A DNA stretch of 64,000 nucleotides. It comes from Leucoraja ocellata. Lineage: Eukaryota. Every line of letters starts with the position of its first letter. Position 1 is the stretch's first letter. Both the position numbers and the translations under genes were made by a program. The notes beneath the pieces were generated by a model that was not told the origin of the DNA, did no database searches, and worked only from the letters and a program-made list of their open reading frames with translations. This document shows positions 5,537 to 63,467 of this stretch, one piece after another. The stretch lies in contig JAWMAR010000049.1 of the NCBI GenBank assembly GCA_036785375.1, positions 7,192,001 to 7,256,000 of the forward strand, read 5' to 3'.

Positions 5537-6825
5537 TTGGAAATTAATTTCCATTCATGACATTCCCAAACTGAAGCAGAATGTTGCAATAGGATTCTGA
5601 GCTTTAAGCTTTCAACGCAGTAGCAAAACTGGTTAATGAGATCAATGAACCATGACAGAGCACAATTCCAAAGTAGTTCACTGGCCACTAGATTCCTCAG
5701 TTTGCTCCACGTTAAAGCCTGACTTTTTAAACAGAGCCAATGTTTAATTTGGGTCAAGCGCAGTGTTTTACTATCACAAAGCAGGATTTACTCAGTCCAG
5801 TGGCATTTGGATTCTTTTCCTGGAATAAAAAAGGACACAGAGATAACAAACCCTATTTAAGGCCATTCCTTGCACTGGTTTTTCCTTGCCCTTCTACCCG
5901 TTTCGACCAGCTATACAATTCACAACTTTTGGCAACTCCCTATCCATGTCTCACAGCTGTTCTTTCTCTGGCCTTCGTCCAACAACCTGTCCATCTAAAA
6001 CCCCCCCTTGCCTGTGTCTACCTATTACCGGCCATGCTCTGTCCTGCCCCTCCTCTTTTCCGGCTCTCTTCCCCTCTCTCCCCCCCCCCCCCCCCCCCCC
6101 CGTCTCACTCAGTCCGAAGATGGGCCTCAACCTGAAATGTCACCTATCCATGTTCTCCATTTTCTGTCTTTCCTTGAATTTTGTTTTCTCTGTAAGATAC
6201 CGAGGGGAACGTGAATGCGAAACAAGCATAAATCAAACATGAGGGAAGGAGATTGAATCTTTTCACATAATCTACAGTGTCAGTATTCAGATACCTAACG
6301 TGGAGCCGAGTGAACCTACAGCCGTCTTCCACCCCCATCTTCATGGTGACAAAATATAATTACTGATCAGAAGAATGCTGCATCTTGAAAGTAGATCATC
6401 TTACCAATGGCATTTAACGGGCAAAAATAGGAAGACTGAGACATTAAGAGCTGGGCTCAGTAAATTCATAAAGTGCATAACGACGATCAATTTGTTGATC
6501 AGTGGGAATAAAAACACTTTTTCCACATTTCAAATAATCCGGATATAAATTAATTTAAAATTAGTATTTGGAACGATAAAAAACAAAATGTGGAAAACCT
6601 GGCTGACCTCACTGAGATGGATAAACACCCAGTCACCATGGCAACATTCTTAAGTAGGTTAAGGACTGATGAAGATCAGCTCTGCACAAACTTTATAATT
6701 CAACAAATTAAGCCTTCACTGAAGTTGTATGTTAGACAGAAGGGCCTGTTTCCACACTGTGTGACTCTATGAAGCTGAGATCACCAAATGGGAATCATAT
6801 TAACTTAGATGTAAGCTGTACTCAC

Positions 6826-6935
6826 CCAACAACATTTGTAGCACATAGAAACTAAGTCCATATATACTGTTTGGCTGATTCAAAGCACTCTCTTTTCCAA
6901 AAATGATCCCAACTAGTCCAAATCCTCTTCCCCAC
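6826..6935 (-). CDS. VKORC1L1: VKORC1L1 coding exon 2 (110 nt; [37 protein letters not shown])
   Basis: Translated by hand; the ORF track does not show this frame. Acceptor TTGCAG|G, donor G|GTGAGT. Carries the VKOR motifs WGRGFG and LNQPNS. Phases join exons 1 and 3 in frame. Confidence 0.97.
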
Positions 6936-7901
6936 CTGCAACAAATAATAATTAGTTAAATGACACAGTAGGTACATAACTATTAGTAACACATGGACAA
7001 CGCCACACACACACACATGAAAAATAATGAAAAAAAGATAGAACAAAAACTCTGGAAATTCTGACATTTGAACAAGTAGAATTGGTAAAAATGATCTTGA
7101 ACCACAATCCCAGGTAACTATTTTTTTTCCATCTCTAGAAGCAATAGTTCAATGTTCATCTGTTAGCTAAAGGAAGGTTTAATTTCCTGAACTAACAAAA
7201 GGAGGCTTTCCCCCCCCAAAAAAAGCACCACAAAATTAGCAACATAAACAGCTGTAACAGGAAGCACTGAGTTGGAGAAAGGATATTGGCTCAATGTGCA
7301 CTAAAGCTCACAGGGCTAGGATGCAATTGGAAAAATATTTTCCATCCAGGAGACATTTCCAATTAGAGATAAGAGACTGCAGGTGCCAAAATCTGGAGTA
7401 ACAATCAATCTGGACCAGAGGAAATCAGCAGATCTAGCAGCATGCATAGGTTGGGTAGTTGAGGAATTATCAGTGGTACATTGGGATTGAGAGTGGTGCA
7501 ACAGGAGCCACTGCTGGACAAGAGAGACCCAGCCTTTTTGTGTCTGTCTTTGGTGAAGGATAACAGTTGGATGAAGTCACATTTGGGGAAGGGAGGAGAG
7601 GGAGAGAGAGGGGGGGGGAGAAGGAGAGAGGGGGGGGGGGGGGGGAGAGGAGGAGGGGGGGGGGGGGGGATTATGAGATTCAGGTCGATGAATGTTAGGA
7701 GGAGGCAAACTAAAAAAAAAATCTTCAATTCTCTTTCGAGACAGCGCTGAATCAGTTTTCTCCATTCTTTAAGCTATGCATTGCAGACATAAACTGGAAT
7801 GTAAAAATAATTTCCATCTTCCCTCAGATACTTGCGCGTATTAATTTAAATGTGTTCACTGTGGTTTAACTTAGATTAACTCAGTTGTATATTGTACTTG
7901 C

Positions 7902-8004
7902 CCAACAACATTTGCAGCAGGAAAAAGCTGAGTCCATATACTGTTAAACTAATTCAAAGCACTCTTTGTTCCCAAAATGAGGTCAGGTAGTAACAGCAAA
8001 TCCG
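7902..8004 (-). pseudogene. Degenerate duplicate (pseudo-exon) of VKORC1L1 exon 2
   Basis: About 80% identical to 6826-6906 over about 80 nt (...KSALN*FNSI-fs-GLSFFLLQMLLG). In-frame TAG and a 2-nt deletion. Shares the intronic 10-mer TAACTTAGAT (6801 and 7867). Confidence 0.85.
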
Positions 8005-8231
8005 CTGTAGCTCGAATATTTTCCACACTTAAGTCATAATTAAACAGCAGAGAACTAGGTCCGTTTGCCCACCAATTTAGCGCCAGCCATCGTTACCATG
8101 ATCATGTTTTCCCTCTCTCACTATCAATCACTATTCCTCCTCCCCCACCTCTGTTTTCCTGTCATTCACCTACACTAAGAGGCAATTTACAGTAGCAAAT
8201 TAGCTTTACTCATTGGCACAAAGGAGGAAAC

Positions 8232-8580
8232 TGCAGATAAAGTGGATGTGGAAAGGATGTTTCCACTGGTGGGAGAGTCTAGGATCAGAGGTCATAGCCT
8301 CAGAATTAAAGGGCACTCTTAGAAATGAGGTGAGGAGGAACTTCTTTAGTCAGAGGGTGGTTCATCTGTGGAACTCATTGCCACAGAGGGCTGTAGAGGC
8401 CGAGTCAGCGGATATTTTTTAAGGCAGGGATAGACAAATTCTTGATTAGAACATGTATCAAAGATTAAGGGGAGAAGGCAAGGAAAATGGGATTAGGAGG
8501 CAGAGATCAGCTATGATTGAATGGCGGAGTAGACTTGATCGGACGAATGGCCCAATTCTACTCCTATAACTTGTGAACTG
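8232..8580 (+). mobile_element. CR1 LINE 3' fragment
   Basis: VRRNFFSQRVVHLWNSLPQRAVEA plus CR1 3' UTR. Confidence 0.85.
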
Positions 8581-8965
8581 CAGAACCTATACAGTTGTAG
8601 GCTGTTCATTTAACCTCCAATTTAGTTTAGTTGAGTGATGCAGCAGGCAAACAGGTCCTTTGACCCAGCCAACCATCAATTACTCGTTCACACAGTTCTC
8701 TGTTATCCCACTTCCACTACCTACACACTAGGGGCAATTTACAGAGGCCAATTAACCTACAAACCCGCACATCTTTGGAATGTAGGTGGAAACCAGAGCA
8801 CCTGGAGGAAACCCATGTGGTCCCAGGGAGAGTGCACAATCTCCACGCAGACAGCACCCTGATTGAATCTGGGTCTCTGACACAGTCAACGCAAGCATTG
8901 CCACTTTCATTTCACTGTACATTTTGTATGTGTATGTGACAAATAAAATGGACTCGACTTGAATT

Positions 8966-9240
8966 GGGGCAGCACGGTGGCGCTGAGGTAAAGTTGCTGC
9001 CACACAGTGCCAGAGACACGGGTTTGATTCTGACTATGGGTGCTGTCAATACAGAGTTTTTACATTCTCCCCGTGACAGCGTGGGTTTTGTCCGGGGGCT
9101 CCGGTTTCCTCCCACACGCCAAAGACCTATAGGTTTGTAAATGTAAACAGTCTCTAGTGTGTAGGATAGTGCTAGTGTATGGGGTGATCACTGGTTGGCG
9201 CAGACTCGGTGGGCTGAAGGGCCTGTTTCAGCACTGTGTT
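8966..9240 (+). mobile_element. HE1-like V-SINE (a degenerate minus-strand copy lies at about 8620-8885)
   Basis: GGGGCAGCACGGTGGCGC head, V-domain, GGGCTGAAGGGCCTGTTTC tail. Confidence 0.85.
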
Positions 9241-9879: not shown

Positions 9880-10253
9880 GTACCTCCATCCGCTCAGTCT
9901 GTCTTAACCTACCTGATCTCCCGGTGGCTCAACACTTCAAATCCCAATCTGTCCTGGGCCTCCTCCAACGTGAGGCCCAGTGCAAACTGAAGGAACAGCA
10001 CCTCATACTTTGCTTGGGTAGTTTACACCCCAGTGGTATGAACATCGACTTCCCTAACTTCAGATTGCCTTTGCTTTCTCTCTCCTTCCCCATTCTCCCA
10101 CTAGTCTTACTGTCTACAACTACATTCGATATTTGTCCCACCCCCTCCCCTGGCATCAGTCTGAGGAATGATCTCAACCCGAAACGCCGCCCATTCCTTC
10201 TCTCCCGAGATGCTGCCTGACCCGCTGAGTTACTCCAGCATTTTGTGTCTACC
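9880..10253 (+). mobile_element. Penelope-like element 3' fragment (GIY-YIG endonuclease C-terminus plus pseudo-LTR)
   Basis: PDLPVAQHF...EAQCKLKEQHLILCLGSLHPSGMNIDF matches the PLE C-terminal E..L..L.T..PxGLN pattern. Followed by a degenerate CTGA.GA..GAAAC motif. Flanked by the 18-bp direct repeat ACTGTRCACTGATCCTGT (9857 and 10254). Confidence 0.8.
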
Positions 10254-10873
10254 ACTGTGCACTGATCCTGTCTCAATGGCGTTACAGAATTTCTGATATT
10301 CTCTACAACTCTATAAACACCAAGGCTGGCAGTTACCCTGCATTACAGAAAAGTAAAATTAATAATTAATCTAGCACCATGGGCAGAGTTAACACAGCAC
10401 CATGCAGAACTGAATCACATCCACCCTTTCCCCAGTGGGACAGGCAATTAGCGGTACTTAAGCCGCTGCAAAGACACTTCTTAATACTAATCATTATCCC
10501 AACCAAGAGAGAATTCAATTTTAAACACATCAGAAATAAGATGGCGAACAATCAGAGGAGCAGAACAGAATGCTGTTGGCTTCAAATTAATCTTCCAATA
10601 GTATCTATATTTATGCGTCTGACCCGAAACGTCACACATACTTTTTCTGATCACAATCTCATCAATTTAGTCAATCACAAAGTGCTGGAGTAACTCAGCG
10701 GATCAGGCAGCTGAGTAATGTTTCAGGTATGGTGGTAGTTCTGGAACTGGAATGTTCGCCCCCTTATCTACAGCTCCAGTGCTGACGCACCCAAACATCA
10801 CTCTGCTTTAACGCTCAAGAGCTGTGACACAAACACATATTTCCAGGTGTAGCGGTGGCGCAGCGGTAGAGTT

Positions 10874-11640
10874 CAGGTTCAGATTCAACTTTAATTGTCA
10901 TTGTCAGTTTACAGTATAGAGACAACGAAATGCAGTTAGCATCTCCCTGGAAGAGCAACATAGAATATGATTTCAATAAATAAATCTATTTACATGTATA
11001 CAGACATAGTTTTTTTCCTGTGGGAGGAGTGTCCGGGGGGGGGGGGGGGGGGGGGTTGATTGGCAGTCACCGAGGTACATTGTTGAGTAGTGTGACAGCC
11101 GCAGGGAAGAAGCTGTTCCTGGACCTGCTGGTCCGGCAATGGAGAGACCTGTAGCGGCTCCCGGATGGTAGGAGGGTAAACAGTCCATGGTTCGGGTGAG
11201 AGCAGTCCTTGGCGATGCTGAGCGCCCTCCGCAGACAACGCTTGCTTTAGACAGACTCAATGGAGGGGAGCGAGGAATCGGTGATGCGTTGGGCAATTTT
11301 CACCACCCTCTGCAGTGCTTTCCGGTCGGAGACAGAGCAGTTGCCATACCATACTGTGATACAGTTGGTAAGGATGCTCTCGATGGTGCAGCGGTAGAAG
11401 TTCACCAGGATCTGAGGAGACAGATGGACCTTCTTCAGTCTCCTCAGGAAGAAGAGACGCTGGTGAGCCTTCTTGACCAGAGTTGAGGTATTGTGGGTCC
11501 AAGAGAGGTCATCGGAGATGTTGACCCCCAGGAACCTGAAGCTGGAAACACGTTCCACCTCCGCCCCGTTGATGTGGATGGGGGTGTGCGTGCCGCCCCT
11601 AGACTTCCTGAAGTCTACAATGAGTTCCTTGGTCTTCTGC
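10874..11640 (-). mobile_element. Rex1/Babar-like LINE 3' fragment (RT C-terminal, DUF1891-like region) inserted in a V-SINE
   Basis: ORF 11247..11558 ERVSSFRFLGVNISDDLSWTHNTSTLVKKAHQRLFFLRRLKK. TSD AGAGTT (10868 and 11642) splits a + strand SINE (about 10850-11948). Confidence 0.85.
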
Positions 11641-13472
11641 CAGAGTTGCTGCCTTCACAGCACCAGAGACCCAGGTTCGATCCTGACCACGGGTGCTGTC
11701 TGGACGGAGTGTGTACGTTCTCCCTGTGACCTGCGTGGATTTCCCCCGGGATCTCTGGTTTCCTTCCAAACTCCAAAGACGTACAGGTTTGTAGGTTAAA
11801 TAGCTTCAGTAAAATTATAAATTGTCTCCCTAGTGGTTGTAAGATAGTGTTAGTATGTGGGGATCTCTGGTCGGCGCGGACTTGGTGGGGGGGGGAGGGG
11901 GGGGGGGGGGGGAAAGGGCCTGTTACCGCGCAGTATCTCTAAACTAATCAAGTGATTAGAATACTTTCTTCAGGAAGGGCAATCCAGAATTTAAAAAGCT
12001 GTCTTCATGGGGTGAGCTTTGCCATCAGGAATGAAATAATCTGGAATCTCACCAGTTCCCCGTGGGATAAGTAATGTCGCAGTGCACTCACTCATACCCG
12101 GCAGCCGGCAATAATCATCAGTGCATATGCTGTCTTCCTGGAACTGTACATAATTTCTACTCTCACCTTATTAAACAAAAATAACCCTCGAGTCAAACAA
12201 TTGGCAAGGAGGGTGTAGTCAACGGAAATTCCAACAGAGCCCGTCTGCTGAAAAGATGCTCAGTGCAAACAACCACGTTTTGCCAGAAAGAAAAAGCAGG
12301 AAACTTCATTGCAACACCACGAGTGCAGTTCCTGGCACCACCGTTACCGTCTATAAATCGAGGAGACGACTGGAAGAATGACCACATCGCCAACATCATG
12401 GGGTTAGGAGGGAGAGATAGATCAGCCATGATTGAATGGCGGAGTAAACTTGATGAGCTGAATGGCCTAATTTTCCTATTCCTTATGACATGACCGCTGC
12501 TAACGATTCTCTGGAGATCACTTAATCTTGGTAATCTTTGTTAATCGTGCCTCAAAACAATGAAACTTTGCTGTCGTGTCTCGTGGGCCCTGCAGATACC
12601 TCTTCTGACATCAATTCATAGGCAGCCAGATCTCCCCACACAACAGGAGCCACATAGTGTCTACAACATGTCATTTGTTCTGTGGTCCACCATAATTAGT
12701 ACCTGTGAAAAGACTCTGAGCTTTATGCCAGAAATCTCCCAAACTGGTTTGATGAGAATTACCTGGAGATAATTAACTATGAACACAGGACATTTTTAGA
12801 TTGGAAATTCCACCAGATCTCAGGAGGGAAAAAAATATCTAAACAGGCACCATGGTCCGAGAGAAAGTCCATGACCGACAGAATATCAAACGGACAGGCC
12901 AACTAGCAATTCACTGATAATCTGCCCATGTTCTGGTTGCTCATTGCTCCCAAGGCTATCTTTAACTCAAATATTCAACAGTCCAACGCATTAAGAACCT
13001 CTGAATATTTGAGTTGAACCTGTCAAGCACCACTAATCATTATTATTGCCTGATGGAAAGTGCACTTCAAGAATTAAAGACCTCACAGAAACACAATGTC
13101 AATGGCGATAAAAGATCACCTGCTACTTACTAAAAAGATTTATTTTACTCTAATTATCCTTCTTAAATATTACCACTGTTCTTCTTTCCTCTGCCAACCC
13201 CTTTTCATCACATTCATAGTTTAGGTCAGTTCATAGTTTAGTTGAGTTTAATTTAGAGATACTTTGTGGAAAACAGGCACTTCGGATTGCCGAATCCTCT
13301 CCGACCAACGATCACCTGTGAACTAATTCTATGTTATCCCTGTGCGAATCCTACACAGTCGGGGGATTTACAGGAACCACCAAACCTGCGCATCTGTGGA
13401 ATTTGAGAGGAAAGCCGAGCACACGGAGAAAACCCATGTGGTCACAGGGAGAACGTACAGCCAGCAATCTAA

Positions 13473-26151: not shown

Positions 26152-26374
26152 TTGTAGGAAAGAACTGCAGATGCTGGTTTAAATCAAAGGGAGACACAAA
26201 ATGCTGGAGTAACTCAGCGGGACAGGCAGCATCTCTGGAGAGAAGGAATGGGTTACGTTTTAGGTCGAGACACTTCAGTCTGAAGAAGGGTCTCGACCCA
26301 AAGCGTCACCCATTCCTGCTCTCCAGAGATGCTGCCTGCCCTGCGGAGTTACTCCAGCGTTGTGTGTCTACCCG
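26152..26374. mobile_element. Penelope-derived fold-back element
   Basis: About 90-nt inverted arms around CTTCAGTCTGAAG; 9-bp flanking repeat GGTTCTTTT. Confidence 0.8.
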
Positions 26375-28457
26375 GGTTCTTTTCGCGCTGCAGAATGTGA
26401 CCATTTCCATTGACACAACCTTATCACTAACTTGCAATAGTCAACAGCTTAGTAGAATATACGTTTTCATCAAAATTTCCTTTTATACTAAAATTGCTTC
26501 AAATATTACTGGATCCTTCTTAGGCAGTCCCATGAGAGGAAGGACGAGCTGCTTCCAAGCAAATGTAAAGATTCTTGGCTAACGGGTGACATCAATGCGA
26601 GAACCTGCAACTCCTCCAGAGCTGGTGCAGGAAAGAGTTGCCTGACCAGACAGGCATGTATGGAGTTTCATGAGGTGGTGTGGCCCTTCTGCAAGGCTTC
26701 TGTCTACACTTGTTGCATGAATGAAAGTTCCCATACTCAGCAGAGTAACTCAGCGGGTCAGACAGCATCCCTGGAGTAAAGGAATAGGTGACGTTTCAGG
26801 TCGAGACCCTTTTTCATACCGAGAGTCAGGGGAAAAAGAAACGAGAGATATAGACAGAGATATAGAGAAATATAGAACATGTGAATGAAAAAGATGTAAA
26901 AAGTAACGACGATCAAGGAAAGGTGGAGCCCACAATGGTCCATTGTTAGCTATGGGCTAGGTGCTAACGAGTTATACAGACAGTGAAACTCAACAGGACG
27001 ATAGTGAAACTAGTAATCATGTATAGTCTCTTTACTGACTAGATAGCAAGCAACAAAAAAGCATTTCACTGTACTCAGTACACATGACAATATATGAACA
27101 GACCTAAAATAAAAAAAATAATTTACTAAAATAGTTTCAGGGGTGAGTGATTACAGATAAACGGTTAAAATGGAGATTGCTCGTCTTGGAGCAAAAGGGA
27201 TCAAGAGGAGACTGATAGAAGTGTACAGGATCATAAATGATCTGGATAAGACTAAACAAAGGTAAACTATTTCTAGATCCATATTGCCCATGGACCCAAA
27301 GATGAACAAGATTTTTATCCGTTATGACACCGTTCGTTCAGCCTTAGCCACATCAAAATTATTGGACCAGTGAAGGTGACAGGTCATGACTGTTCCAGTC
27401 AAGACACCAAAGAACAGTCTTAACCTGTGAGCTGCACAAGTCAAATCTTTAAGGAGATAAAGCACAACCTTTACTTATACTAAGATTATGTTGTTTTAAT
27501 TAAAAGAATGCTCACCATAATATTGTTTCTTTGCACACTGTGCCATATATGTGTTTTCAAGATTGTAACAATAAAGACAGTAGTCTTTCCAAAGTTTATA
27601 AGAAAGATAGCAATCATTTCAATTTAAAACATTCACAGCATGGATAGTTCAAAGTTGCTATATTTAATTCAGGAATAAAATTAAATTCACTTGGTTGTCT
27701 TTCATGAGGCTAAAATATAAATGAACATAGTAATGGAGCTGTTTAATTATACCATACTGGTATTTATGCTTTATAATGTATCGTCCCGCCCTATTTCATC
27801 CAATCTAACCATCATCTTTTTTTTTTCTCTACTGTTCTTAACTTTCTTCCATTGCCATTTATCTCAACCACTCCCTAGGTATTCTTTAAAATACTTCCAG
27901 GTTTCAGAGTTTCTTTATGTGAAATCCAAATGAAGTAACCCCATGTCAAATAAAGACTAAAGAAACTGGAAGAAAGCAAGAGATACAAAATTCCAACCTT
28001 ATCTCCAGCAAATATATCTCTTTAAAAAAAAAAATAGGAGTTGAGGAACATGGGTGAAGGGTCAATGCCATAGTGCAGAAACTCCAAGCTATTTAAACAG
28101 CCTAGCTTGTTAGGTGGCAAAGATATGATTGAGTCAAGTTTTAAGACAAGTTAAAGACAAGTTTAAGTCCTGTGGCTCTTCAAGCAAAGATTGTGAGATA
28201 CTGGGTGTGAATTAGAGGAAATGCACCTAGACTTTGCACTTCAATGATATGTTAAAAAAAAAGAGCACAAATACAAAATGGGAAAATTACCCGGGGCTGC
28301 AGATGGACTAATCACACAGAATTAATCTCTTCAAAAGACATTCTGAATTAGAAGTTAAAAGTATATTTCTAGTTTGGAGGAAAAGCTCCTGTAACCGTTC
28401 TACCATTTCAGAGCAACATTCATCTACTCCTGCATTCTGAAATAAAACGCCAATTGT

Positions 28458-28485
28458 CTGAAGAAGGGTCTCTACCCGAAATGTC
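28458..28485 (+). ncRNA. Minimal hammerhead-like motif in a PLE-derived insert (about 28458-28552)
   Basis: CUGAAGA-A-GGGU(CUCU)ACCC-GAAA-UG-UC; insert flanked by the direct repeat GCCAATTGT. Confidence 0.45.
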
Positions 28486-28769
28486 ACCCATTCCTTCTCT
28501 CAAGAGATGCTGCCTGTCCTGCTGAGTTACTCCAGCACCGTGTCTATCTTTAGCCAATTGTATTTAACCCATTTCCAATCAATTTACTCCCAACCCTAAA
28601 ACAAAATGCAGCAAGATCTTCAAACTCATGTAAATTAATTGTATCTGTTGTAATTTGACAGATGAAAATCTACAATGTTCAACTCTACAATTTCATATAA
28701 CTCCACACAAAAGTAGGTACACCAGGCAAATCAATACTGCAGGCAATCAACAGTATCATCAGAATGTGT

Positions 28770-31013: not shown

Positions 31014-32429
31014 CAATAAATTCTTGAACAGCTCATTGCGACTGCCTTAAATTTCACCTGTCACCAGAGAATAAAAGTTCAGGTTGTTTCAGGAATGCCC
31101 GCAAGGCTTTTTATTTGTCATTGCTGTGCACATTTACTCCTAACTAATGTACATTTCCATCAGCAAAATTAAATTCCAAATTTTCTTTCAGAGCACCGTA
31201 ATGTTACAAGTACACAAGGCTCATCTGTAACTCATAATGTACAAAACGGTTTAACTAATCCTCATAAATGAACACATAATACACAACAAGATCCTTCTGC
31301 ATCAATCGAGTCCTTCCTTAAAAAATGTCCATACCATTTTCAGCATTTAGCTGCATTGTAATTGAAACAAAAGACTGCAGAAAATGACACCCATAATTCT
31401 ACTCCAACATAATGGTGTGCTTCAATTGTCTCTATTGGTTCCATTGAGATATTTACCAATCTGTAACCCATATATACCAATATAAAGATTAAGGCATAGA
31501 TCTTGGCTTCACGGATAAAGAAAAACAAAGTGCACAATAACTCAGAAGCTCAAATAAACTTCACAAAGTGCATTGTAACTCAATGGGTCAGGTTGCATCT
31601 CTGGAGAACATAGATAGGTAACTTTTCTAGTCGGGACCCTTCTTCAGACAGGGACCCTTCTCCTATTGATATCCTCCAGAGATGCTGCCTGACTCACTGA
31701 GTTACTCCTCCAGCATTTTGTATTTCTTTTGCAAACCAGAATCTGCAACACTAAAATTGTTTTAAACAGCAATGACAGATCTTCGATCTGGTAGTGGGAA
31801 CCAAAACCTTTTGACCAGACCGCACAAATTAGAACAGATGATACCCTGTGTAAGAAGAAACCGCAGTAACTGGTTTACACCGAAGATAGACACAAAATGC
31901 TGGAGTAGCTCAGCGGGACAGGCGGGACCTCTGGAGTACCCTGTTCTATGTTAGTTAAGTACAAAGCAGATGCTCTATAATCAATAAAACCTCAGTGACA
32001 ACACCACAGCTCTGATCAACTCTGACCATCTCCTGCAGGAGATGGATTTCTCTTTCAGCGTTGGGTCCCACCACCACCTGTCAAAGGCTTACCCTGAAGG
32101 GATGGCAACACTGAATGTTTACAAAACGTGTAGGAAGGAACTGCAGGTGCTGGTAAACATCAAAGACAGCCACACAAGGATGGAGTAACTCAAGGAGACA
32201 GGCACCATCTCTGGAGAACATGGATAGGTCCGTGTAGGACAGAACTGTAGATACTGATTTATACCGAAGGCAGACACAAAATGCTGGAGTAACTCAGCGG
32301 GGCAGGCGGCGGGGCTGGAGAGAAGGGATGGGTGACGTTTCTGGTCGGGACTCTTCTCCTGTCGATGGGGGTGGGATGAAGGGGGCCTGGGAAGGACTGG
32401 GGCTGGCCTGGCTATCCCCTTCTCCTCCC

Positions 32430-32770
32430 CTCCCCTCTCGCCAGACTCACCTCGACCCGAACACCTTGGTGCAGCTCATCCGCTCGCTCAGGTCGCACAT
32501 GGCCACGTAGCCGGGGTCGCTGCCCCGGGCGCTCTCCACATGGTAGGCGTAGACGGAGAGCAGCGCCCCGAGCAGGCAGACGCTGCCCCGCGCTACTTTC
32601 TCCCACCTCGGGGTCGCCACTTTCAGGATGGGCGCCGCCATCTTGCCTTCCTCCCCCCCGCCGCCGCCGCCTCCGAGACGCCGCGCACTCCCATTGGCCA
32701 GCGCCGGCGCCCTCCACGTCACCAACCCCGCCCCCCCTGCTGACGTCATTAGAGGTGCGCCCTCCCTGTG
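32430..32770 (-). promoter_or_regulatory. CpG-island promoter of VKORC1L1 with CRE, GC box, TGACGTGG element, CCAAT box and YY1 motif
   Basis: CpG-rich. TGACGTCA 32741-32748; GGGGCGGGG 32726-32734 (-); TGACGTGG 32714-32721 (-); CCAAT 32693-32697 (-); CAAGATGGCGGC spanning the start codon; no TATA box. Confidence 0.8.
32451..32641 (-). CDS. VKORC1L1: VKORC1L1 coding exon 1 (191 nt; [64 protein letters not shown])
   Basis: ATG at 32641 in strong Kozak context (AAGATGG). The N-terminus resembles vertebrate VKORC1L1 (MAAPVLLRVSVPRWERVAR), with loop cysteines C49/C57. Ends at phase-2 donor AG|GTGAGT (intron starts 32450). Confidence 0.97.
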
Positions 32771-32817
32771 GCAGCAGAGGCTTCAGGTTTTGGCCCTTGA
32801 GGCACATGGTACCTGCC

Positions 32818-32985
32818 TCAAGAGTCAAGTGTCAAGAGTCAAGTGTCAAGTGTCAAGAGTCAACTGTCAAATGTCAAGTGTCAAGTGTCATGTTTGAAGT
32901 CAAGTGTTTCCAAGGTCAGTTTAGTGTCAAGTTTGAAGTCCAGAGCCAAATCCAGAGTCAACTGTGTTTTATTGTCATATGTCGA
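32818..32985. repeat. 7-bp tandem repeat (TCAAGWG)n, the expanded tail of a minus-strand retroposon
   Basis: About 10 clean units then degenerate ones, ending in TTTATTGTCATATGTC (reversed AATAAA-containing tail). Confidence 0.85.
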
Positions 32986-33000
32986 ACATATAAGATTGTT

Positions 33001-33189
33001 AAGGTACACAAAAAAGCTGGAGAAACTCAGCGGGTGCAGCAGCATCTATGGAGCGAAGGAAATAGGCAACGTTTCGGGCCGAAACGTTGCCTATTTCCTT
33101 CGCTCCATAGATGCTGCTGCACCCGCCGAGTTTCTCCAGCTTTTTTGTGTACCTTCGATTTTCCAACATCTGCAGTTCCTTCTTGAACA
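33001..33189. mobile_element. Penelope-derived near-perfect palindrome inserted in a CR1 fragment (CR1 continues 33190-33450)
   Basis: 77-bp arms 33001-33077 and 33079-33155 with 1 mismatch; direct repeat ATAAGATTGTTAAGG at 32990 and 33190. Confidence 0.9.
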
Positions 33190-33439
33190 ATAAGATTGTT
33201 AAGGGTTTGGACACGCTGGAGGCAGAAAACATGTTCCCCATGTTGGGGGAGTCCAGAACCAGGGGCCACGGATTAAGAATAAGGGGTAAGCCGTTTAGAA
33301 TGGAGATGAGGAAGCACTTTTTCTCACATAGAGTTGTGAGTGTGTGGAATTCTCTGCCTCGGAGGGCGGTGGAGGCAGGTTCTCTGGATGCTTTCAAGAA
33401 AGAGCTGAATAGAGCTCTTAAAGATAGCAGAGGTGCGGG

Positions 33440-33626
33440 GAAGGGGGTGATGATGTGGTGTGGGGGAAGGGGGGGAGAATGGGGGAGGGGTAAAGGGGGT
33501 GTGGGGAGGAGGAGGGAGGGGAAAGTGGGGAGGAGGAGGGAGGGGAAAGTGGGGAGGAGGAGGGAGGGGGAAGTGGGGAGGAGGAGGGAGGGGGAAGTGG
33601 GGAGGAGGGGGAAGTGGGGAGTGAGG
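33440..33626 (+). repeat. G-rich purine minisatellite (24-bp unit GTGGGGAGGAGGAGGGAGGGGRAA)
   Basis: About 4-5 tandem units at 33501-33620. Confidence 0.9.
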
Positions 33627-34369
33627 GACTCCACTCAGCGGCCACCAGCCACGGCACCACACAGCACCTCCCGACTCCACTCTTGCGGACTCAATCAGCA
33701 CGGCTTGTTTACTCAGCCTCGCCTCCAGGGCTTTATTCTCCAGCGGGTGCCGGAAAGGTGTCACCTTCATGGTGAGGGGGAGTTAAAGTGTTTAGCAACC
33801 GGGAGATCAGGTAGGTTTAGGCGGACTGAGCGAAGAGCCTGACGTATGTCTTCCTGTTGTTCAAATGGTGCATGGCAGAGTGGAGAGACAGTCAGATCTC
33901 ATTAGTGTCAATCTATCATGACATTAGGCAAATTAAGGTGAGTCCAGATTGTTACTGAGGCGGGAGTTGATGTGTCTCATAACCAAATTTTAATCATTCT
34001 TAAGCAAAGTACAATTGGTGGATTTATGCCAGATCTTATAGCATATTGACACCATTATATTAGGTATAAAAGGATGCGTAAATGAATGCAAGGTGATGCT
34101 GGTCAGTACAGCTAATTAATAAGAACGTGACTGACACTGTGTTAGCGACCGAATCATGATCGGTAAGAAATTTAAATTTCCTGTCGTCTTTGGCAAGATG
34201 AAAAATGGACTTGGGGCAAAGGGCAATAAAGGACTTATGATTTATGAAAAAAGAGCCTTTGTTAATCCATTATATTGCAGCATAACATGTTGAAACTTGT
34301 GCGTGATGATTTGAATTATGGAATGGGTCAAGACCAACCATTTGCATTTGCCACACATATTGATAAGAT

Positions 34370-34987: not shown

Positions 34988-35644
34988 TAATGAGCAAAAT
35001 TGGCAGAGAAGCATTGCAAATGATTTAGGTGCAAATGTTACTTCAGCTTTTATTGGGTAGATTCTGGTCACAGATGACTAGTCTTCATTAGCAATGTTTG
35101 ACCCTGAGTTGGCAATACCACCAATAGCTAAGTTATCGATCTTAATACGATCACACAAATGAACATACAAGTTCAAATCAAAATTTTGGATTGATGTTAT
35201 TGTGTATTACAGAAACTGATTCAGTGTGGAACAAATGACACAAAATTTGACTCAACTGAGACCAGTCCGGACAAACGGCACAAGACTCAACTGAATGGAG
35301 CCAAGTCTGAATAACAGGGACACTCTTGCACCTAGGACTCCGCCCCCTCAGCAGCCTCCTCTGCGAATGGATCTTGATTTTCTGCCCCATTGACCAAAAT
35401 CTGTAAAGAGAGGTGACCAAACATCCTCCACAATAATTCACAACACAAGTGCCCTGTACAGTCAGCAGCCGTGGTCAGGATCAAACCCTGGTCTCTGGTG
35501 CTGTAAGGCAGCAACTCTACCGCTGCGACACTGTGCCGCCCATTTCTTCCTCCACGATTAAAATGGTCTACCGTGTCAACTGTTCAAGGGAAAAAAGATT
35601 TGGAGTCTGTTGGAATACGTGGGGCCTTTTGAAGTTGGTAGACT

Positions 35645-36022
35645 GTAGACGCTGCCTCAAAAAGGCTGGCAGTATCATCAAAGACCCACACCATCCTGGC
35701 CACACACTCATCTCCCTGCTACCTTCAGGTAGAAGGTACAGGAGCCTGAAGACTGCAACAACCAGGTTCAGGAATAGCTACTTCCCCACAGCCATCAGGC
35801 TATTAAACCTGGCTCGGACAAAACTCTGATTATTATTAACCCATTTTCTGTTATTTGCACTTGATCAGTTTATTTATCATGTGTTTATATATTTATATTA
35901 TGGTATATGGACACACTTATCTGTTTTGTAGTAAATGCCTACTATGTTCTGTGTGCTTAAGCAAAGCAATAATTTCATTGTCCTATACAGGGACACATGA
36001 CAATAAACTCACTTGAACTTGA
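35645..36022 (+). mobile_element. Rex1/Babar-like LINE 3' end
   Basis: RRCLKKAGSIIKDPHHPGHTLISLLPSGRRYRSLKTATTRFRNSYFPTAIRLLN; tail GACAATAAA(CTTGAA)n. Confidence 0.85.
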
Positions 36023-36500
36023 CCCAATGGTATGAACATTGAACTCTCCAACTTTAGGTAATATCTCCCACATAACATCCACCCCTCCCCCCCCCCCCCC
36101 CCCCCCCCCACCCCTCCTAAGGCCTGGATGACCTTGCACCTATCTCTCCCCTATACCTCCACCTACATTCCCTCCCCTGGCTACACAATTCGCACCTCGT
36201 CCATCCTCGAGCTTCACAATTCACAACTCTTTAATCCTTCTGTGCGTTCATCCCTGGCCTTTGTCCAACCATCAGCCCAGCCCCCTCCCTCCTCACCCGT
36301 GTTCACCTATAACCTGCCGTGCTTTGCCCTGCCTCTCCACATGTCGAGCTTTCTTTCCTCTCACCCCTGCAACCAATCTGAAGAACGGTCGCAGCCTGAA
36401 ACGTCACCTAACCATGATCTCCAGGGATGCCGCCTGACCCGCTGAGTTACTCCACCATTTTGTGTCATTCCTTGCTAAACCAGCATCTGCAGTTTCTAGT
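36022..36500 (+). mobile_element. Penelope-like element 3' end / pseudo-LTR
   Basis: Starts with PNGMNIELSNFR* (end of the GIY-YIG region), pyrimidine-rich spacer, CTGAAGAA...GAAACGTCACC, GAGTTACTCC. Confidence 0.7.
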
Positions 36501-37045
36501 TCCTAATGAACAATATTTATTGTCTTATGTCCCAGACAGAACAATTAAATTCTTTTAAACTGAGTTGATTCTTGCAATGGAAATAGGATAGGTGTCTACT
36601 TAATTTGTTTTTGTTTTGTTTTTGTTAATTTAGAGATTATCGTTTATAACCCTATTTTAAAAATGCACTTTAAAATTGGATTATTGATTGATGTAGTAAC
36701 CATCTTAATTGGCAATGACAAACTCAGTCAATGTACACTTATGATATCAATATTGTGGTCAGAGAGTGTGTAAGTTGGCCGAGGGTCATAGACTCTTACA
36801 GCGTGGCTGGCAACAGGCCCGTCGACCAAACTTGCCCACACCGACTAACACATCCCAGCTACACTGGTCCCACCTGCCTGCCTTTGGCCCATGTTTCTAT
36901 AAACCTGTCCTATCCATATTCCTGTCTATATGTTTCATAAGCGTAGTGATAGTCCCTGCCTCAACTACCTCCTCTGGCAGCTTGTTCCATACATCCACCA
37001 CCCCTTGTGTTAGAAAGTTACCCCCAAGGTTTCCACTTCACCTTA

Positions 37046-38435: not shown

Positions 38436-38646
38436 GAAAGACACAAAAAGCTGGAGTAACTCAGCGGGACAGGCAGCATCTCTGGAGAGAAGAAATGGGT
38501 GACGTTTCGGGTTGAGACCCTTGAAGGGTCTCGACCCAAAGCATTACCCATTCCTTCTCTCCAGATTTACTGCCTGTCCCGCTGAGTTACTCCAGCTTTT
38601 TGTGTCTTTCTTCGGTTTAAACCAGCATCTGCAATTCCTTCTTACA
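38436..38646. mobile_element. Penelope-derived fold-back element with 15-bp TSD
   Basis: About 85-nt inverted arms; CAAGTCTACTCYGCT at 38421 and 38647. Confidence 0.85.
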
Positions 38647-38754
38647 CAAGTCTACTCCGCTAATCATTAAACAAGCAAGGGCTTTGACAAAATGCTGGAG
38701 TAACTCAGTGGGTGTGAAGAAGGGCCCTGGCCCGAAACATCACCTGTCCATGTT

Positions 38755-40405: not shown

Positions 40406-40417
40406 GACCTTATTTCT

Positions 40418-43590: not shown

Positions 43591-45413
43591 TATCTACCAT
43601 ACCCTCTTCTCATAAGGTCCTGCTGAGTTACTCCAGCATTTTGTGTCTACCTTCTATACTCAATACTCTGACTGCTGAAGGCCAATGTGCCGAAAGCCTT
43701 TGTGACCACCCCATCTGCCTATGAGGCCACTTTCAAGAACCATGCACCTAAAATGTGGTTGATATCAGCGGCAACAGGAAACCATTAAGAGCACATATAC
43801 AAGAGATTATATTTTGTTGCTCAAGGTCAAATAATACAGTTCAGGGTTAGTCCATTAAATAGCACAATTTCTGGGGAAAACTTTGTGAAAGCTGACTTTT
43901 CTGTGAGTGAATAACTCAAATAGCACCTAAAATACATTTACACAGGTATATGGATAAGAAAGGTTCAGAGGTATATGGGCCAAACGCGGACAGATGGGAC
44001 TAATGTAGATGGGGCATTTTGGTTGGAATGGGCAAGTTGGGCCGAAGGGCCTATTTCCATGCTATATGACTACGATATCAGTGAGGGTCAAAACTGACCA
44101 CAATACTCTAAATGTGGCCTCACCAACGTCTTATTTAACTGCAACATGACCTCCCAACTTCAATACTCAATACTCTGACTGATGAAGGCCAATGTGCCCA
44201 GAACTGAACACAATACTCCACATTCTTCAGAGATGTTGCCTGACCTGCTGAGTTACTCCAGCACGTTTGTCTCCTTCTAAGCTAAAATGGAAGGCTGCAT
44301 ACAAGATTTAAAAAACCCAATTGTAATGGCCTTTATACCATCAATTTAATGGGCACACACCGTAGGCAAAAGTCTCATGGCTCAAGATGTTTAATAAAGA
44401 ACTGCAGATGCTGGAAGAATCGAAGGTAGACAAAAAATGCTGGAGAAACTTAGCAGGTGAGAAAGATCCATGGAGAGAAGGAATAGGCGACGTTTCGGTT
44501 CCAGACCCTTCTTCAGACTGATGTCACAAAGAATGGTAGGTACATGGAACGAGCTGCCAGAGGAGGTAGTTGAGGCAGGTACGAGCTCAAGGTTTAAAAA
44601 TTATTTAGTCAGGCACAGGGATAGGATAGGTTTAGAAGGAAATGGACCAAAGCAGGCTGTTGGGACTAGTGTAGATGGGGCAGGTTAGGGCTGGACTTTT
44701 GTTATCTCACTGTGATGGGGGTGGGGGGTGGAAGAGGCAGCAGTAACCTCAGATGTGTGTTGAAATGCCAGGTTTAGTTTTGTTTTGTAAAATGCTTCTG
44801 TATGTACAGCAAAGAACTGAGTTAATAATTACCAGTTCTATAAGTTACATTCATATCGTGTGCCAACAATGATACAGAAGATATACCCAAAGCGCAACAG
44901 AGGTGTTGGCAGGTTTAAAAAGAAAGGTTTAGTTTAGTTTTTATTTAGTTTATAGATATAGAGTGGAACCAGACCCTTTGGCCCACCGAGTCCACACTGA
45001 CCAGCGACCCCTGCACATTAACACTATCCTAGATGTCACACCAAAGAAGGAAATACATACTCCAAATCTTGGCAAAAAGAGGTGGATTTTAAATAGGATC
45101 CTTAAGGAGGCTATTGAGAAGTGTAGGGTGAGAATCTGTGGGTATAAAAGGTGCAATTGTTTCATTTCCTCACTTCAGCAGTTTTGGATTCAAATCAAGG
45201 CCAGCTTGAAACACTATATTAAATTATTAAAAAAGTAGAATAAAAACATTGCTGTAATATACAATCCCATTGTCCATTTTTGTTTAAATATAAATAAAAT
45301 AAAATTTATTCAGTGTAAAAAATCTCTACTAAACAAGAACTGTGCAAAAATACTTCCGACATTCTCGGAGGCTATACATACATTCAGGCGTTGCAAAATT
45401 TGTAGCAAAATAA

Positions 45414-45441
45414 CTGAAGAAGGGTTTCGGCCCGAAACGTT
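45414..45441 (+). ncRNA. Minimal hammerhead-like motif in a PLE pseudo-LTR (45414-45506)
   Basis: CUGAAGA-A-GGGU(UUCG)GCCC-GAAA-CG-UU; helix I not evident. Confidence 0.5.
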
Positions 45442-45526
45442 GCCTATTTCCTTCGCTCCATAGATGCTGCTGCACCCGCTGAGTTTTTCCAGCACGTTTG
45501 TGTACCAGTGGAGATAACAGTCTCTG

Positions 45527-50800: not shown

Positions 50801-50804
50801 ATGG

Positions 50805-51710: not shown

Positions 51711-51719
51711 AATACAGCA

Positions 51720-54483: not shown

Positions 54484-55862
54484 AATCTAAATTGCGCAAA
54501 ATACAAAATCTGTTAAATAAATTTAACTAAAGGCACAGCTTTATGGACCTGCCATTGAATTCAAGAAATCTCACCTTTTGAACAAAAAGATATATATTTT
54601 TTCCTTAAAGATATTAACAATTTTATGGGCGCAATATATTTTTATTACTTTTGGGAAAGAATGCCGTGTTCTGAGAATAGACACATGGCAATCAGGAGCT
54701 TACAATATCTTAAACGAGTAAAATACACCAGAATGTATGAAGGTCATTAATATAACTCACCATAGACACAAAAAGCTGGAGTAACTCATCGGGACAGGCG
54801 GCATCTCTGGATAGAAGGAATGGGTGACACTTCGGTTCAAGACCCTACTTCAGACAGTCATAAGGTCATAAGGAATAGGAGTAGAATTAAGCCATTCGGC
54901 CCATCAAGTCTATTCCGCCATTCAATGCTGGCTGAACTATCTCCCTCCTAACCCCATTCTCCTCCCTTCTCCCCATAACCTCTGACACCTGTACTAATCA
55001 AGAACCTATCTATTTCTGCCTTAAAAATATCCACTCTTGGGCTCCACAGCTTTGTGTGCCAAAGAATTTCACAGATTCACCACCTTATCTTTGTCAACCT
55101 TCGGTGTCTAGCTACCCAAGAATCTGTTCCACAAAGCCTCTTGCACTGGTTAAATATTTTAAATGAGATTATAGCAGTCAACTACACAGGGTTGAATGCA
55201 GTACATCTGAAAATCAAAATATTATAACTTGAATTTTTCACAGTCATTTGAAGAGACTGTTTCAATTATAAAAACATAGAAACATAGAAATTAGGTGCAG
55301 GAGTAGGCCATTCAGCCCTTCGAGCCTGCACCGCCATTCAATATGATCATGGCTGATCATCCAACTCAGTATCCTGTACCTGCCTTCTCTCCATACACCC
55401 TGATCCCTTTAGCCACAAGGGCAACATCTAACTCCCTCTTAAATATACCAATGAACTGGCCTCAACTACCCAATTTGTTGAGTTTGCTGCACTATTTCAG
55501 CACAGACCTTGTGGGTTTTATAATGGGCCTTAACCTTAGGACTCACAAGTAAAAGCAGAGGGGGATTGTGCATGGATAGAAGAGGTAGCACAGTGGCACA
55601 GCAGTGGAGGTGCTGACTTACAGCACCGGAGATGAGTCTGAAGAAGGATCTCGACTCAAAAAGTTGACTAGTCTGAAAAAGGGTTTTGACCCGAAACGTC
55701 ACCCATTCCTTCTCTCCAGAGTTGCTGCCTGAATCGCTGAGTTACTCCAGCATTTTGTGTCTATCAAGAGTGTCTTGTTGTCATATGTCCCACATAGAAC
55801 AATGAAATTCTTACTTGCAACAGCACACCAGAATATGTAAACATAGTACACTGTAAACATAA

Positions 55863-56002: not shown

Positions 56003-57239
56003 ACAGCATCTCTGGAGGGAAGGAATGGGTGACGTTTTGGGTCGCGACTCCAGCAGAAGAATCTCGACCCGAAACGTCACCCATTCCTTCTCTCCAGAGA
56101 TGCTGCCTGTCCCACTGAATTACTCCAGATTTTTGTGTCTATCTTCAGTTTAAACCAGCATCTGCAGTTCCTTCCTGAACAATATAACTTGCCATGCATG
56201 TTCTCAGCAATGCACCAGAGCGTTACATTGCATTGCTTGCTCCAGTCCCTGGAGTGGGACCAAACCACAGCCATTCTCCGAGTCAGAGGCTGAGACTGCC
56301 ATGAGACAGGACTGACAGAAGTGGGGTTTACATTACATTATCACCATGTACTACACAATGCCACCCACCAGGAGATATACTCAATACATGTAATCCGGCA
56401 GCAGCAACATGCAGGCTTTCATCCCCAACAATCAAGCTCCCTCTCTGTCCACAAGGGGGAGCCTACTTCAAAAAGTGTAAAAAACACAGGCCAGTAAGGT
56501 GGCGCAGCGGTAGAGTTGCTGCCTCACAGCGCCAGAGACCCGGGTTCGATCCTGACTACGGGTGCTGTCTGTACAGAGTTTGTACATTCTCCGAGTTCGC
56601 CTCGACACTGCAGTTGGACTGCTGGACCACGGGAGAAGGAACAAAGGGAAGAGATAAAGACTTTGCCTTCCATCACAGTGAGGAGATGTTGGAGACTCAC
56701 TGTGATGGATGTTTATGTAAACTGTGTTAACTGTGGGTCTTCGATTGTGTTGTAATGTTAAAAACTGTAGAAATGATATTTCGTTCAAACCTAGGTTTGA
56801 ATGACAATAAATCTTATCAAATCAAACTTCATTTTGCAACCACACTCCAAAGACATACAGGTTTTTAGGTTAATTGGCTTGGTGTAGCAATTGCCCCTAG
56901 TGTGTGTAGGATAGTGTTAGTGTGCGGGGATCACTGACTCGGTGGGCCGAAGGGCCTGTTTCCGCGCTGTATCTCCACAACTGAACTACATATGGGAGAG
57001 ATAAGAAAAGACAAAGTGCTGGGGTAACTCAGTGGGTCAGGCTGCATCTTTGAAGAACATGAATAAGTTTGGGTTGAGACCCTGACTATGGTGGTTATTG
57101 TAGTGGAGTGGAGTGGGATGGGGTGGGGGGGGGGGGGGAGGGGGGGAGTGGGTTGGGAGAATGCTGGAAGGGAAATGGGGTCAGGACAAAGCCTGACAAG
57201 CGATGTGTAGGAAGGCACTGCAGATGCTGGTTTCCATCT

Positions 57240-57329
57240 CTGAAGAAGGGTCTCGGCCCGAAAAACGTCACCCATTCCTTCTCTCCAGAGATGCTGCCTG
57301 TCTGAAGAAGGGTTTCGGCCCGAAACGTC
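57240..57329 (+). ncRNA. Tandem pair of minimal hammerhead-like motifs in PLE pseudo-LTRs
   Basis: 57240: CUGAAGA-A-GGGU(CUCG)GCCC-GAAAAA-CGUC. 57302: CUGAAGA-A-GGGU(UUCG)GCCC-GAAA-CGUC. Confidence 0.55.
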
Positions 57330-57459
57330 GCCTATTTCCTTCGCTCCATAGATGCTGCTGCACCCGCTGAGTTTCTCCAGCAATTTTGTGTACCTTCGAT
57401 CTTCCACCATCTGCAGTTCCTTCTTGAACACTTCTTATGAAATGGTTCTGTTTGATAAT

Positions 57460-58659: not shown

Positions 58660-58664
58660 TCTAC

Positions 58665-58712
<48 letters not shown>

Positions 58713-61241: not shown

Positions 61242-61371
61242 NNNNNNNNNNNNNNNNNNNNNNNNNNNNNNNNNNNNNNNNNNNNNNNNNNNNNNNNNNN
61301 NNNNNNNNNNNNNNNNNNNNNNNNNNNNNNNNNNNNNNNNNNNNNNNNNNNNNNNNNNNNNNNNNNNNNNN
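61242..61371. other. Assembly gap (130 N)
   Basis: Run of N. Confidence 1.
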
Positions 61372-62020
61372 GTCCCCCGTCCCCTCCATGTTTTTATAGC
61401 GAGTTCCGCTCTAGCCTCGGCCCACTAAGTCCACGATGACCAGCGAACCCCGCACATTAACAATATCCTGCACACGAGGGAATAGTTACATTTATACCAA
61501 GCCAATTAACCTACCAGCCTGTCACCTGTGGAGCGTGGGAGGAAACCGATGCAGATCACGGGGAGAACGTACAAACTCCGTACAGACAGCACCCATAGTC
61601 GGGATCGAACCCAGGTCAATGGCGCTGTAAGGCAGCATCTCTACCGCTGTGTCAACTCTCGAGTTTGCTTTGAAAACCCCAGATCAAGACACTCCTTTGA
61701 AATCAGTTGGTATGCAATGGAAACTTGCTTCATCAAACAAGGCTCCTTTAGAGTGACATGGTCTGGGTGCCAAGCGAGTATGTACTCTCACCAAAACCTT
61801 GTGCCAGGAAAATGGTGCTTCAATTCCCTGTCTGAAGAAGGGTCTCGATCCGAAAATCCACCCATTCCTTCTCTACAGAGATGCTGCCTGTCCCGCTGAG
61901 TTACTCCAGCATTTTGTGTGTACTCTACCTCACCAGTTCCCTTTGATTCTGATGCAAGGGATACAATGTGATGCGCTGTAGAAGTTTGAGGAACAACAGG
62001 TATTTTTCATATATCCTGTT

Positions 62021-62642
62021 GGGGTGGCACGGTGGCACAGTGGTAGAGCAACTGACTCAGAGTGCCAGAGACCCGGGTTCAATCCCGACTCCAGGCGCTC
62101 ATCTGTACGCAGTTTGTACATTCTCCCCATGACCTGCGTGGGTTTTATCTGAGATTTTTGATTTCCTCCAACACTCTAAAGACGTCCAGGTTTGTAGGTT
62201 AACTAAGTAGGTTCAGTCCCTAGTGTGTGTAGGATAGTATTAACGTGCGGGGATCGCTGGTCAGCGCGGGCACGGTGGGCCTCTTTCAACATTGTATCTC
62301 TAAACTGAACTAAACAGGATTATTATTCCAGTAATGGGAGAGTCCACAACCAGTGGGTACAGCCTCAGAATAAAATTACACACCTTTAGAATGGAGATAA
62401 GGAAGAATTTATTCAGCCAGGGCGTGGTAAATCTGTGGAATTCATTGCAGCATACAGCTGTGGAGGCCAAGACATTGGGTATTTTTTAAGTGGAGGTTGA
62501 TACCTTCTTGATTAGGATGGGCATCAAATGTTTCAAGGAGATGCAGGAGAATGGGGTTGAGATGAAAAGATAGATCAGCCATGATTAAATAGCGGTATTG
62601 ACTCGATGGGCTGAATGGCCTAATTCTGCTCCGATGTCTTGT
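62021..62642 (+). mobile_element. V-SINE (62021-62315) followed by a CR1 3' fragment (about 62325-62642)
   Basis: SINE head, V-domain and tail; GTGGTAAATCTGTGGAATTC CR1 core and UTR. Confidence 0.8.
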
Positions 62643-63467
62643 GCTCTACCATGGGTCACACGTAATAATCTAATGAGCCGCCCAATCTACCAAGGAAATT
62701 CTGTCAAGCCTCACCGGTGTTATCATTGGTCATGGCAGGAATCCCCAGCTTTTGTAGGATATTTTGTTACAGTGTGTGGCTGGAAAATTGTGTCGTTTGT
62801 TCCAACCATTTAACAGACACAATGGTTTCATTATTATCGCATCCAAGCACGCTTTGTTCTACTTAAAATATGCGCTGATAAGTAGCTTAATTGACAAGAT
62901 TCAGTGTCATTCTTGGGGAATATGTTAGAAAAGAATAGTTAACCTACCCAAGAATCTTGTGTGGGAAGAAACTGCAGATGCTGGGTTACACCAGAGATGG
63001 ACACAAATTGCTGGAGTAACTCAGCGGGACAGGCAGCATCTCTGGAGAGAAGGAATGAATGGGTGACGTTTCGGGTCGAGAAACCTTCTTCAGACAGTCT
63101 ATCTTCGGTGTCGATCTACACAAGAATCGGTTCCACAAAGCCCCTCGCATTGGTTAAGTATTTTGAATGAGATTCTGGGAGTCTATCTGCCGTACATCTG
63201 AAAGTCAAAGTAATTTTCACTTGAATTCATCACAGCCATTTGAAGAGACTGTTTCAATGATATCCAATTTTCTGAGTTTGCTGCGCTATTTCAGCACAGA
63301 TCTTGTGGGTTTTATAATGGGCCTTAACCTTGGCACTCACAAGTAAAAACAGTGGGGGATTGTGCATGGATAGAAGTGGTAGCACAGTGGCACAGCAGTG
63401 GAGACAGAGTCCACGGCGCTGTGAGGCATTAGATCTATACCAGCCGCGCCACTGTACCACCGTGGGT

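Follow-up and report, generated by a model that had tools for sequence, protein, structure and literature searches.

Endonuclease-bearing (EN+) Penelope-like elements (PLEs) of the Neptune clade are described as joining a reverse transcriptase (RT) to a C-terminal GIY-YIG endonuclease (EN) through a zinc-finger-like linker, and as leaving partial tandems, adjacent inverted 5'-truncated copies, an optional tail of 30-40 bp and target duplications (PMC8557442, PMC3846280). The pseudo-long terminal repeats (pLTRs) of PLEs are reported to carry minimal type I hammerheads, including those of Neptune elements of fishes, with a CUGANGA-N-helix II-GAAA core, an extra base between 9 and 10.1, a G10.1-C11.1 pair and a palindromic 15.2-16.2, mostly as dispersed singles with some opposite-strand pairs; cartilaginous fishes are not named in the main text of that account (PMC4209133). 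Here we analyze a 64,000-nt stretch of the skate Leucoraja ocellata (contig JAWMAR010000049.1, positions 7,192,001 to 7,256,000; hereafter the window), in which short repeats bearing such a motif lie on both strands. They are a real, very abundant and already known kind of feature, the pLTR ends of a Neptune-type PLE with a minimal hammerhead.

With respect to mechanism, the element to compare is the Anolis carolinensis element Poseidon (Frangieh et al. 2024, PMC11167929), for which two 3' ends about 33 nt apart (the tail), an apparently uncleaved RNA template and no read ending at the cleavage site are described; it belongs to another clade, and its ATG lies in stem II, whereas here the ATG is 164 nt downstream of core base C3. 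By all the evidence set out below, the skate repeats are very probably 5'-truncated pLTR ends of still-intact Neptune-type elements, likely written by the parental RT, in which the hammerhead is cargo that decays neutrally. Our literature search returned nothing on elasmobranch PLE hammerheads or on the 5' edge described below, and the supplements of PMC4209133 and of a 2026 preprint on retrozymes (cited below) may hold chondrichthyan motifs.

Intact Neptune-type parents and their truncated ends

A search for the hammerhead-like motif in the window found 19 matches with no more than 3 mismatches, where 100 shuffles gave none, and 23 when 4 mismatches were allowed; a profile search extended these to 48 family segments spanning 6101..63095 on both strands (49 with the first model). 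The preliminary description, which was made from the window sequence alone, gave roughly twenty or more copies, and its claim of a very high copy number holds: the exact motif has 77,035 matches in the 3.44-Gb genome, and its reversed control has none. In an unselected sample of 1.464 Mb (the window plus 140 stretches of 10 kb), on which the stop rates given below also rest, 745 segments make up 4.5% of bases. Extrapolation gives about 1.7 million segments genome-wide, roughly 290,000 of them with all core bases, far above the 4,000-9,000 copies given for coelacanth and Xenopus (PMC4209133).

The parents were reached through a longer 5'-truncated copy at 9888..10255 (+), which comprises the last ~67 endonuclease codons, a pyrimidine-rich 3' untranslated region (UTR) and a degenerate hammerhead at 10161. 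Its endonuclease remnant (9888-10061; tblastn E 4e-14) is 61% identical to aa 1166-1232 of an intact open reading frame (ORF). Used as a query, this remnant led to longer copies with RT and GIY-YIG pieces, and an RT query led in turn to open frames of up to 1246 aa. The fetched loci hold intact parents as tandem units of 3946-3987 bp, more than 99% alike, each with one ORF of 1221-1246 aa and with the hammerhead motif 117 nt past the stop codon and 164 nt ahead of the next ATG. A 1233-aa example combines an RT with a C-terminal GIY-YIG domain; its matches to RVT_1 (E 1e-6) and GIY-YIG (E 0.012) are below the Pfam cut-offs, and it contains the motifs DKG, YIDD and YIGET and a CX4CXXC linker at aa 1100-1108. 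A CX2-5CXXC linker between RT and EN is reported to mark Neptune and Nematis elements (PMC8557442), and it is this motif, not a tree, that places the parent as Neptune-type. ORF-start matches at 97-100% identity occur in at least 40 places in the genome, indicating that the family is young.

Window copies match the pLTR of an intact parent almost base for base, with 79/80 identical positions for those at 57302 and 45414 and 76/80 for that at 24769, and the claimed Penelope origin is supported. A second longer copy at 36023..36505 (+) retains a UTR, a hammerhead at 36378 with an intact core and 3/4 helix II pairs, and a tail. Both longer copies had been described as GIY-YIG remnants upstream of the motif; the identification stands at 9.9 kb, whereas the 36.0-kb copy holds only the last ~11 codons, below the tblastn threshold.

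The short copies are 5'-truncated pLTR ends of about 95 or 130 bp, either solo with target-site duplications or head-to-head. Positions are numbered from core base C3 (position 0), with the predicted cleavage site between +27 and +28. The 3' ends cluster near +95 and +129, the latter class carrying the tail, which is present in 130 of 348 3'-end motifs. Two such clusters are expected from the two internal RT start sites reported for the anole element (PMC11167929). Of 87 candidates, 15 have target duplications of 9-17 bp, compared with 1.2% of mismatched controls. Among 285 copies reaching C3 there are 134 solo copies, 81 with an inverted arm, 6 in tandem, 26 long copies with an ORF or long UTR upstream of the core, and 38 with pyrimidine-rich upstream DNA. 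Tandem and partial-tandem pLTRs, the inverted 5' copy and the tail of EN+ elements are all present in the family, and two 3' ends, inverted pairs and target duplications are standard PLE structure (PMC8557442, PMC3846280). What sets the skate family apart from the described Neptune elements is an extreme surplus of pLTR-only products with a sharp 5' edge.

In the window, a solo end with an intact core and a 9-bp target-site duplication lies at 28456..28550 (+), antisense to the host gene VKORC1L1. A young solo end of subfamily B at 45414..45506 (+) retains the core, and another solo end at 44418..44526 (-) retains the core and 3/4 helix II pairs. The stretch 57239..57430 (+), outside VKORC1L1, contains two cores 62 nt apart, a subfamily A piece followed by a subfamily B copy with a tail, and includes the most complete motif of the window, at 57302. 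Head-to-head inverted pairs occupy 26189..26372, 33001..33155, 38436..38610 and 56004..56152; the arms of the second are 99% complementary and are both cut inside helix II. Two damaged cores 35 nt apart lie at 55624..55769 (+). Core duplications of 31-35 nt recur (55638/55673 in the window, another locus, and read joints going back 32-34 nt) and would set two cores side by side.

Structure and decay of the hammerhead

All 11 core bases, the extra base after A9, the G10.1-C11.1 pair and the palindromic 15.2-16.2 are the majority state in both subfamilies and in the intact parents, while neighbouring columns differ. The motif agrees with the minimal type I hammerhead published for PLEs (PMC4209133), as had been claimed, and its presence as the majority in both subfamilies makes selection on the source elements plausible. 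A structural descriptor search returned 120 hits against 11 in shuffled sequence; no other hammerhead family stood out, with 14 non-family hits against those 11. The Rfam covariance-model search gave no hammerhead hit at E<=5, and in the window only miRNA-like hits on inverted pairs, all under the gathering scores. All 11 core bases survive in only 9 of the 48 window segments, and in 4 of these 9 helix II also has 4/4 pairs.

Several structural details of the preliminary description needed revision. The cores that it ranked best (28458, 45414 and 57302 on the plus strand, 44489-44516 on the minus strand) are indeed there, the 44.5-kb copy with a G.A mismatch in helix II and the 45414 copy without its helix I strand. 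The GGGC-CCTG-GCCC variant at 38722 is present; it is no evidence of helix II covariation, because C3 is lost in that copy and the C-G pair occurs there in 0 of 340 spanning copies. Of the two forms proposed for helix III, ACGU holds and AACGUU is ruled out, since the core bases A14 and U17 would be paired.

Every intact parent seen has a helix I of 2 bp, the youngest autonomous copies included, an outcome that the preliminary description had listed as counting against its reading; among 106 descriptor hits, 96 have a helix I of 2 bp or less. The earlier caveat that most copies may be inactive, with a helix I of only about 2 bp, is supported. PLE minimal hammerheads are reported with 4-5 bp in Schistosoma and with 2 bp only in the Drosophila virilis variant, and the 4-bp helix II seen here is a further difference (PMC4209133). 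A distal helix I partner or a canonical contact between loops 1 and 2 is absent in the parents. Helix III is formable only between two molecules, as an ACGU duplex of predicted -3.1 kcal/mol, and the predicted fold of a young parent buries the core, with a helix II probability of at most 0.014. In this modelled fold the core, at +5..+42 of the parent pLTR, can be engaged by a pyrimidine run further downstream; such an alternative structure would keep the ribozyme silent until it was remodelled.

These features raise the question of whether the motif is non-catalytic even in the parents, where it would be kept as a promoter or enzyme-binding element. The short helix I and the buried core point that way, as do the helix pair changes between subfamilies, which are one-sided (U-A to U.G; two-sided in 10 of 1020), and a weaker U17 in subfamily B. 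The joint retention of the core, the extra base, the G10.1-C11.1 pair and the palindromic helix III speaks against it, and there are precedents for conditional activity: the D. virilis Penelope hammerhead, with its 2-bp helix I, is reported to have low activity with an extended helix III (PMC4209133), and that of anole Poseidon to cut only with protein (PMC11167929). We consider a non-catalytic motif somewhat improbable. In the parent, the hammerhead would act only in a dimer or when assisted by protein.

Once inserted, the core decays neutrally, like neighbouring bases. In subfamily A (n=274) non-CpG core identity is 0.927 against 0.911 for downstream columns (p=0.17), G12 (identity 0.72) decays like other CpG bases, and copies with a fully intact core are as frequent as expected under independence (88 observed vs 92.1 expected in A, 37 vs 37.2 in B). 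The excess conservation of the core that a functional family would predict in the preliminary description is therefore not seen in the genomic copies. One comparison runs the other way: in subfamily B (n=66) the core is retained at 0.968 vs 0.946 (p=0.02), a slight advantage that may come from ascertainment.

The fixed 5' edge and the possible templates of the copies

Of the 285 copies reaching C3, 221 (the solo, inverted and tandem classes) stop at an edge just upstream of the core. Between -10 and -1 the stop rate is 6.5% per nt, stops being most frequent at -2, against 0.6% at +25..+31, and the edge is fixed by sequence at -3/-2, at an initiator-like TCAGT. It is independent of the 3' end, being found in 61 of 71 copies with a tail and 117 of 143 without, and it recurs in sequencing runs of other organisms. 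In the 26 long copies ATCAGT is nearly invariant and the DNA further upstream is variable. Copies starting at the cleavage site show no excess, the stop rate there being the same as that of its neighbours; since copies do not begin at the cut, they were probably templated by uncleaved RNA, as described for the anole element (PMC11167929). Read ends form no pile in fragmented libraries of a related organism (raw reads mostly 90-95% alike), a result uninformative on self-cleavage.

TCAGT fits the initiator consensus, and a candidate downstream promoter element overlaps the GAAACGT box, a match too short to test. Initiator-like sites have been reported in Penelope promoters (PMC2377424, PMC3846280), and D. 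virilis Penelope is reported to have a downstream promoter element (PMC2377424). By analogy with anole Poseidon (PMC11167929), the enzyme would nick the target and begin internally on an uncleaved RNA, at either of two sites 3' of the hammerhead. There is about an even chance that the dominant template would begin at the A of TCAGT, ahead of the core, so that the enzyme would run off the RNA 5' end after about 100-130 nt; the long copies would come from templates without that end. The fuller proposal, in which the enzyme starts near the 5' end of a capped, uncleaved mRNA that begins three bases ahead of the hammerhead, run-off leaves more than a million strong-stop-like stubs, and long and tandem copies derive from end-less templates (hammerhead-made circles or end-to-end jumps), is offered tentatively and as a whole is rather unlikely.

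The junction sequences bear on a capped template. Following WA, the position just ahead of AGT holds a G in 2263 of 5279 matches (43%), compared with a 25% background and 17 of 100 at an internal control point. Such an excess is what a copied cap would give, but it is mixed with longer inserts. In a looser, post hoc count, from which duplicated loci and two weak 8-9-nt calls were dropped, the G lies outside the duplication at 7/7 vs 2/14 independent loci, which is only suggestive. A single cap-derived G was rejected as a candidate, the test for one adjacent G not being significant (2/11 vs 1/16, p=0.55).

A series of observations weighs against a template capped at this edge. Of the 11 G-junction loci for which a target duplication was called, only 2 have a single clean extra G, the other 9 having longer inserts, and the element's own GAAG is repeated at about 9 of 30 G loci; inserts and repeats together indicate that the G excess is partly template switching. 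No G excess was found at -3 (37/100, p=0.16). Among pLTRs linked to an ORF start, 123 vs 125 continue upstream past the edge, and none had a non-C base at -4, a blank that could be a search artefact. That these pLTRs run past the edge argues against an intrinsic block and also against one mRNA starting at -3 giving the full-length copies; two template pools would fit best.

The edge could instead mark an early stop of the enzyme rather than an RNA end, through a pause, an endonuclease cut, a protein bound where polypyrimidine and CAG form a splice-acceptor-like site, or the TCAGTCTGA palindrome folding back. The polypyrimidine tract and CAG ahead of the core resemble the intron end reported in D. 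virilis Penelope (PMC4209133), the inverted pairs account for 81 of the 285 copies, and stops already rise at 0..+14. Against a stop of this kind, the complementary DNAs (cDNAs) that form arrays read through the edge twice or three times before ending at another point, no GT..AG joint occurs among the best 15 of 152 joints, and inspection revealed no shared exon upstream of solo copies. We judge an early stop quite possible, at a little less than an even chance. The same joints and the same inspection for a common upstream exon led us to reject a helix I completed by splicing, as in D. virilis.

A different source of short copies would be SINE-like units, some short pLTR copies being transcribed from TCAGT and recopied in trans by the Penelope enzyme without ribozyme cleavage. 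Their fixed 5' and 3' ends, the excess of short over long copies (only 26 of 285 with an ORF or long UTR upstream) and the ORF-start-linked pLTRs that do not stop at the edge would agree with such units. So would the single-cell reads of the related organism, which over the pLTR are about 4-5 times commoner in one orientation, likely the element sense strand; oligo-dT bulk runs carry no strand information. Yet short and long copies of the same subfamily match base for base, the TC of the initiator is lost in most short copies, and the anole enzyme is reported to need RNA downstream of its start site (PMC11167929), which solo copies lack. SINE-like sources are unlikely.

Retrozymes and the rare short arrays

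The preliminary description had taken the family to be retrozyme-like and non-autonomous, which would mean that short copies are cut out by hammerheads, circularised and re-inserted. Non-LTR retrozymes (PMC7229834, bioRxiv 10.64898/2026.07.22.740005), as described, share with the skate repeats a PLE derivation, a lack of coding sequence and a type I hammerhead, and one chondrichthyan genome is reported to hold them (bioRxiv 2026.07.22.740005). They are reported to carry canonical hammerheads with loop 1-2 contacts (PMC7229834), in contrast to the minimal ribozyme with a 2-bp helix I found here. The bulk of the family is dispersed as solo or inverted ends that differ little from the autonomous parents' pLTR and do not start at the cleavage site, and it has no fixed monomer; the dispersed copies are therefore not retrozymes, and for them the claim is not supported.

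Short tandem arrays, found for only 6 of the 285 copies, are the only retrozyme-like class, and they are rare. Among the first 100 matches, young head-to-tail arrays with an intact core have spacings of 241, 253, 282, 291, 299, 372, 413 and 560 bp. Head-to-tail arrays make up 6 of 9 independent fetched loci, with units 88-90/90 identical in the five that aligned; by reading of the list, none of 36 same-strand pairs less than 600 nt apart in the unselected sample is a homogeneous array. In six arrays of 249-457 bp the unit extends from the UTR across the motif as far as about +222..+271 and then jumps back to -28..-199, with 0-2 nt of homology and no splice signal. Each array has its own junction, and hence there is no shared monomer. 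The first unit starts at a random point and the last stops at the standard 3' end; the pattern resembles that of a small circle copied several times over or of jumps from end to end. Taken as an account of the short copies, a retrozyme family is very improbable. One contig in a sequencing run of a related organism joins the ORF start (about +222) back to -1 of the pLTR, which proves nothing on circles.

VKORC1L1 and the wider significance of the family

The window also contains VKORC1L1, a minus-strand gene between about 32.6 and 2.2 kb, identified by the Pfam VKOR domain and by a better match to VKOR-like (1e-20) than to VKOR (1e-9) in PDB. Its first coding exon, part of the host gene and not of the element, lies approximately at 32450..32635, its second exon, recognized by translation only, at about 6780..6883, and its last coding exon at about 2180..2385. 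A Pfam scan of 27 longer window ORFs revealed no second host gene. Many copies had been claimed to lie inside the VKORC1L1 pre-mRNA; 20 of the 48 segments do fall within its span, but only 11 are sense (9 are antisense) and none keeps a complete fold. The only sense copy with all core bases, at 31565..31649 (-), has 3/4 helix II pairs and a mismatched helix III, and the closely spaced core pairs at 55.6 and 57.2 kb lie outside the gene. Hammerhead cleavage of, or an effect on, the VKORC1L1 pre-mRNA is unlikely. A GC-rich island at 32000-34000 covers the start of the gene, and the near-perfect inverted pLTR pair that it carries at 33001-33155 sits upstream of the first coding exon, at a distance of about 400 bp.

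Two further segments, 35640-36022 and 11250-11654, are 3' ends of an abundant L2/Rex-like long interspersed element (LINE), with copies about 97% identical. A Pfam ALKBH8_N match at 11.3 kb probably belongs to the same LINE family, and a DNA search with the 36-kb region matched the adjoining LINE 3' end, not the PLE.

These results extend a known PLE ribozyme feature to a genome in which it is unusually abundant, with little sign of an effect on host genes. They are of value for mechanism: how PLEs transpose and what their hammerheads do are described as open questions (PMC8557442, PMC11167929), and the intact young parents, together with a very large record of start and stop points, make these questions testable. 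If the tentative proposal of capped and end-less templates were true, the genome would record the two templates of PLE transposition, and the hammerhead would gain a testable job.

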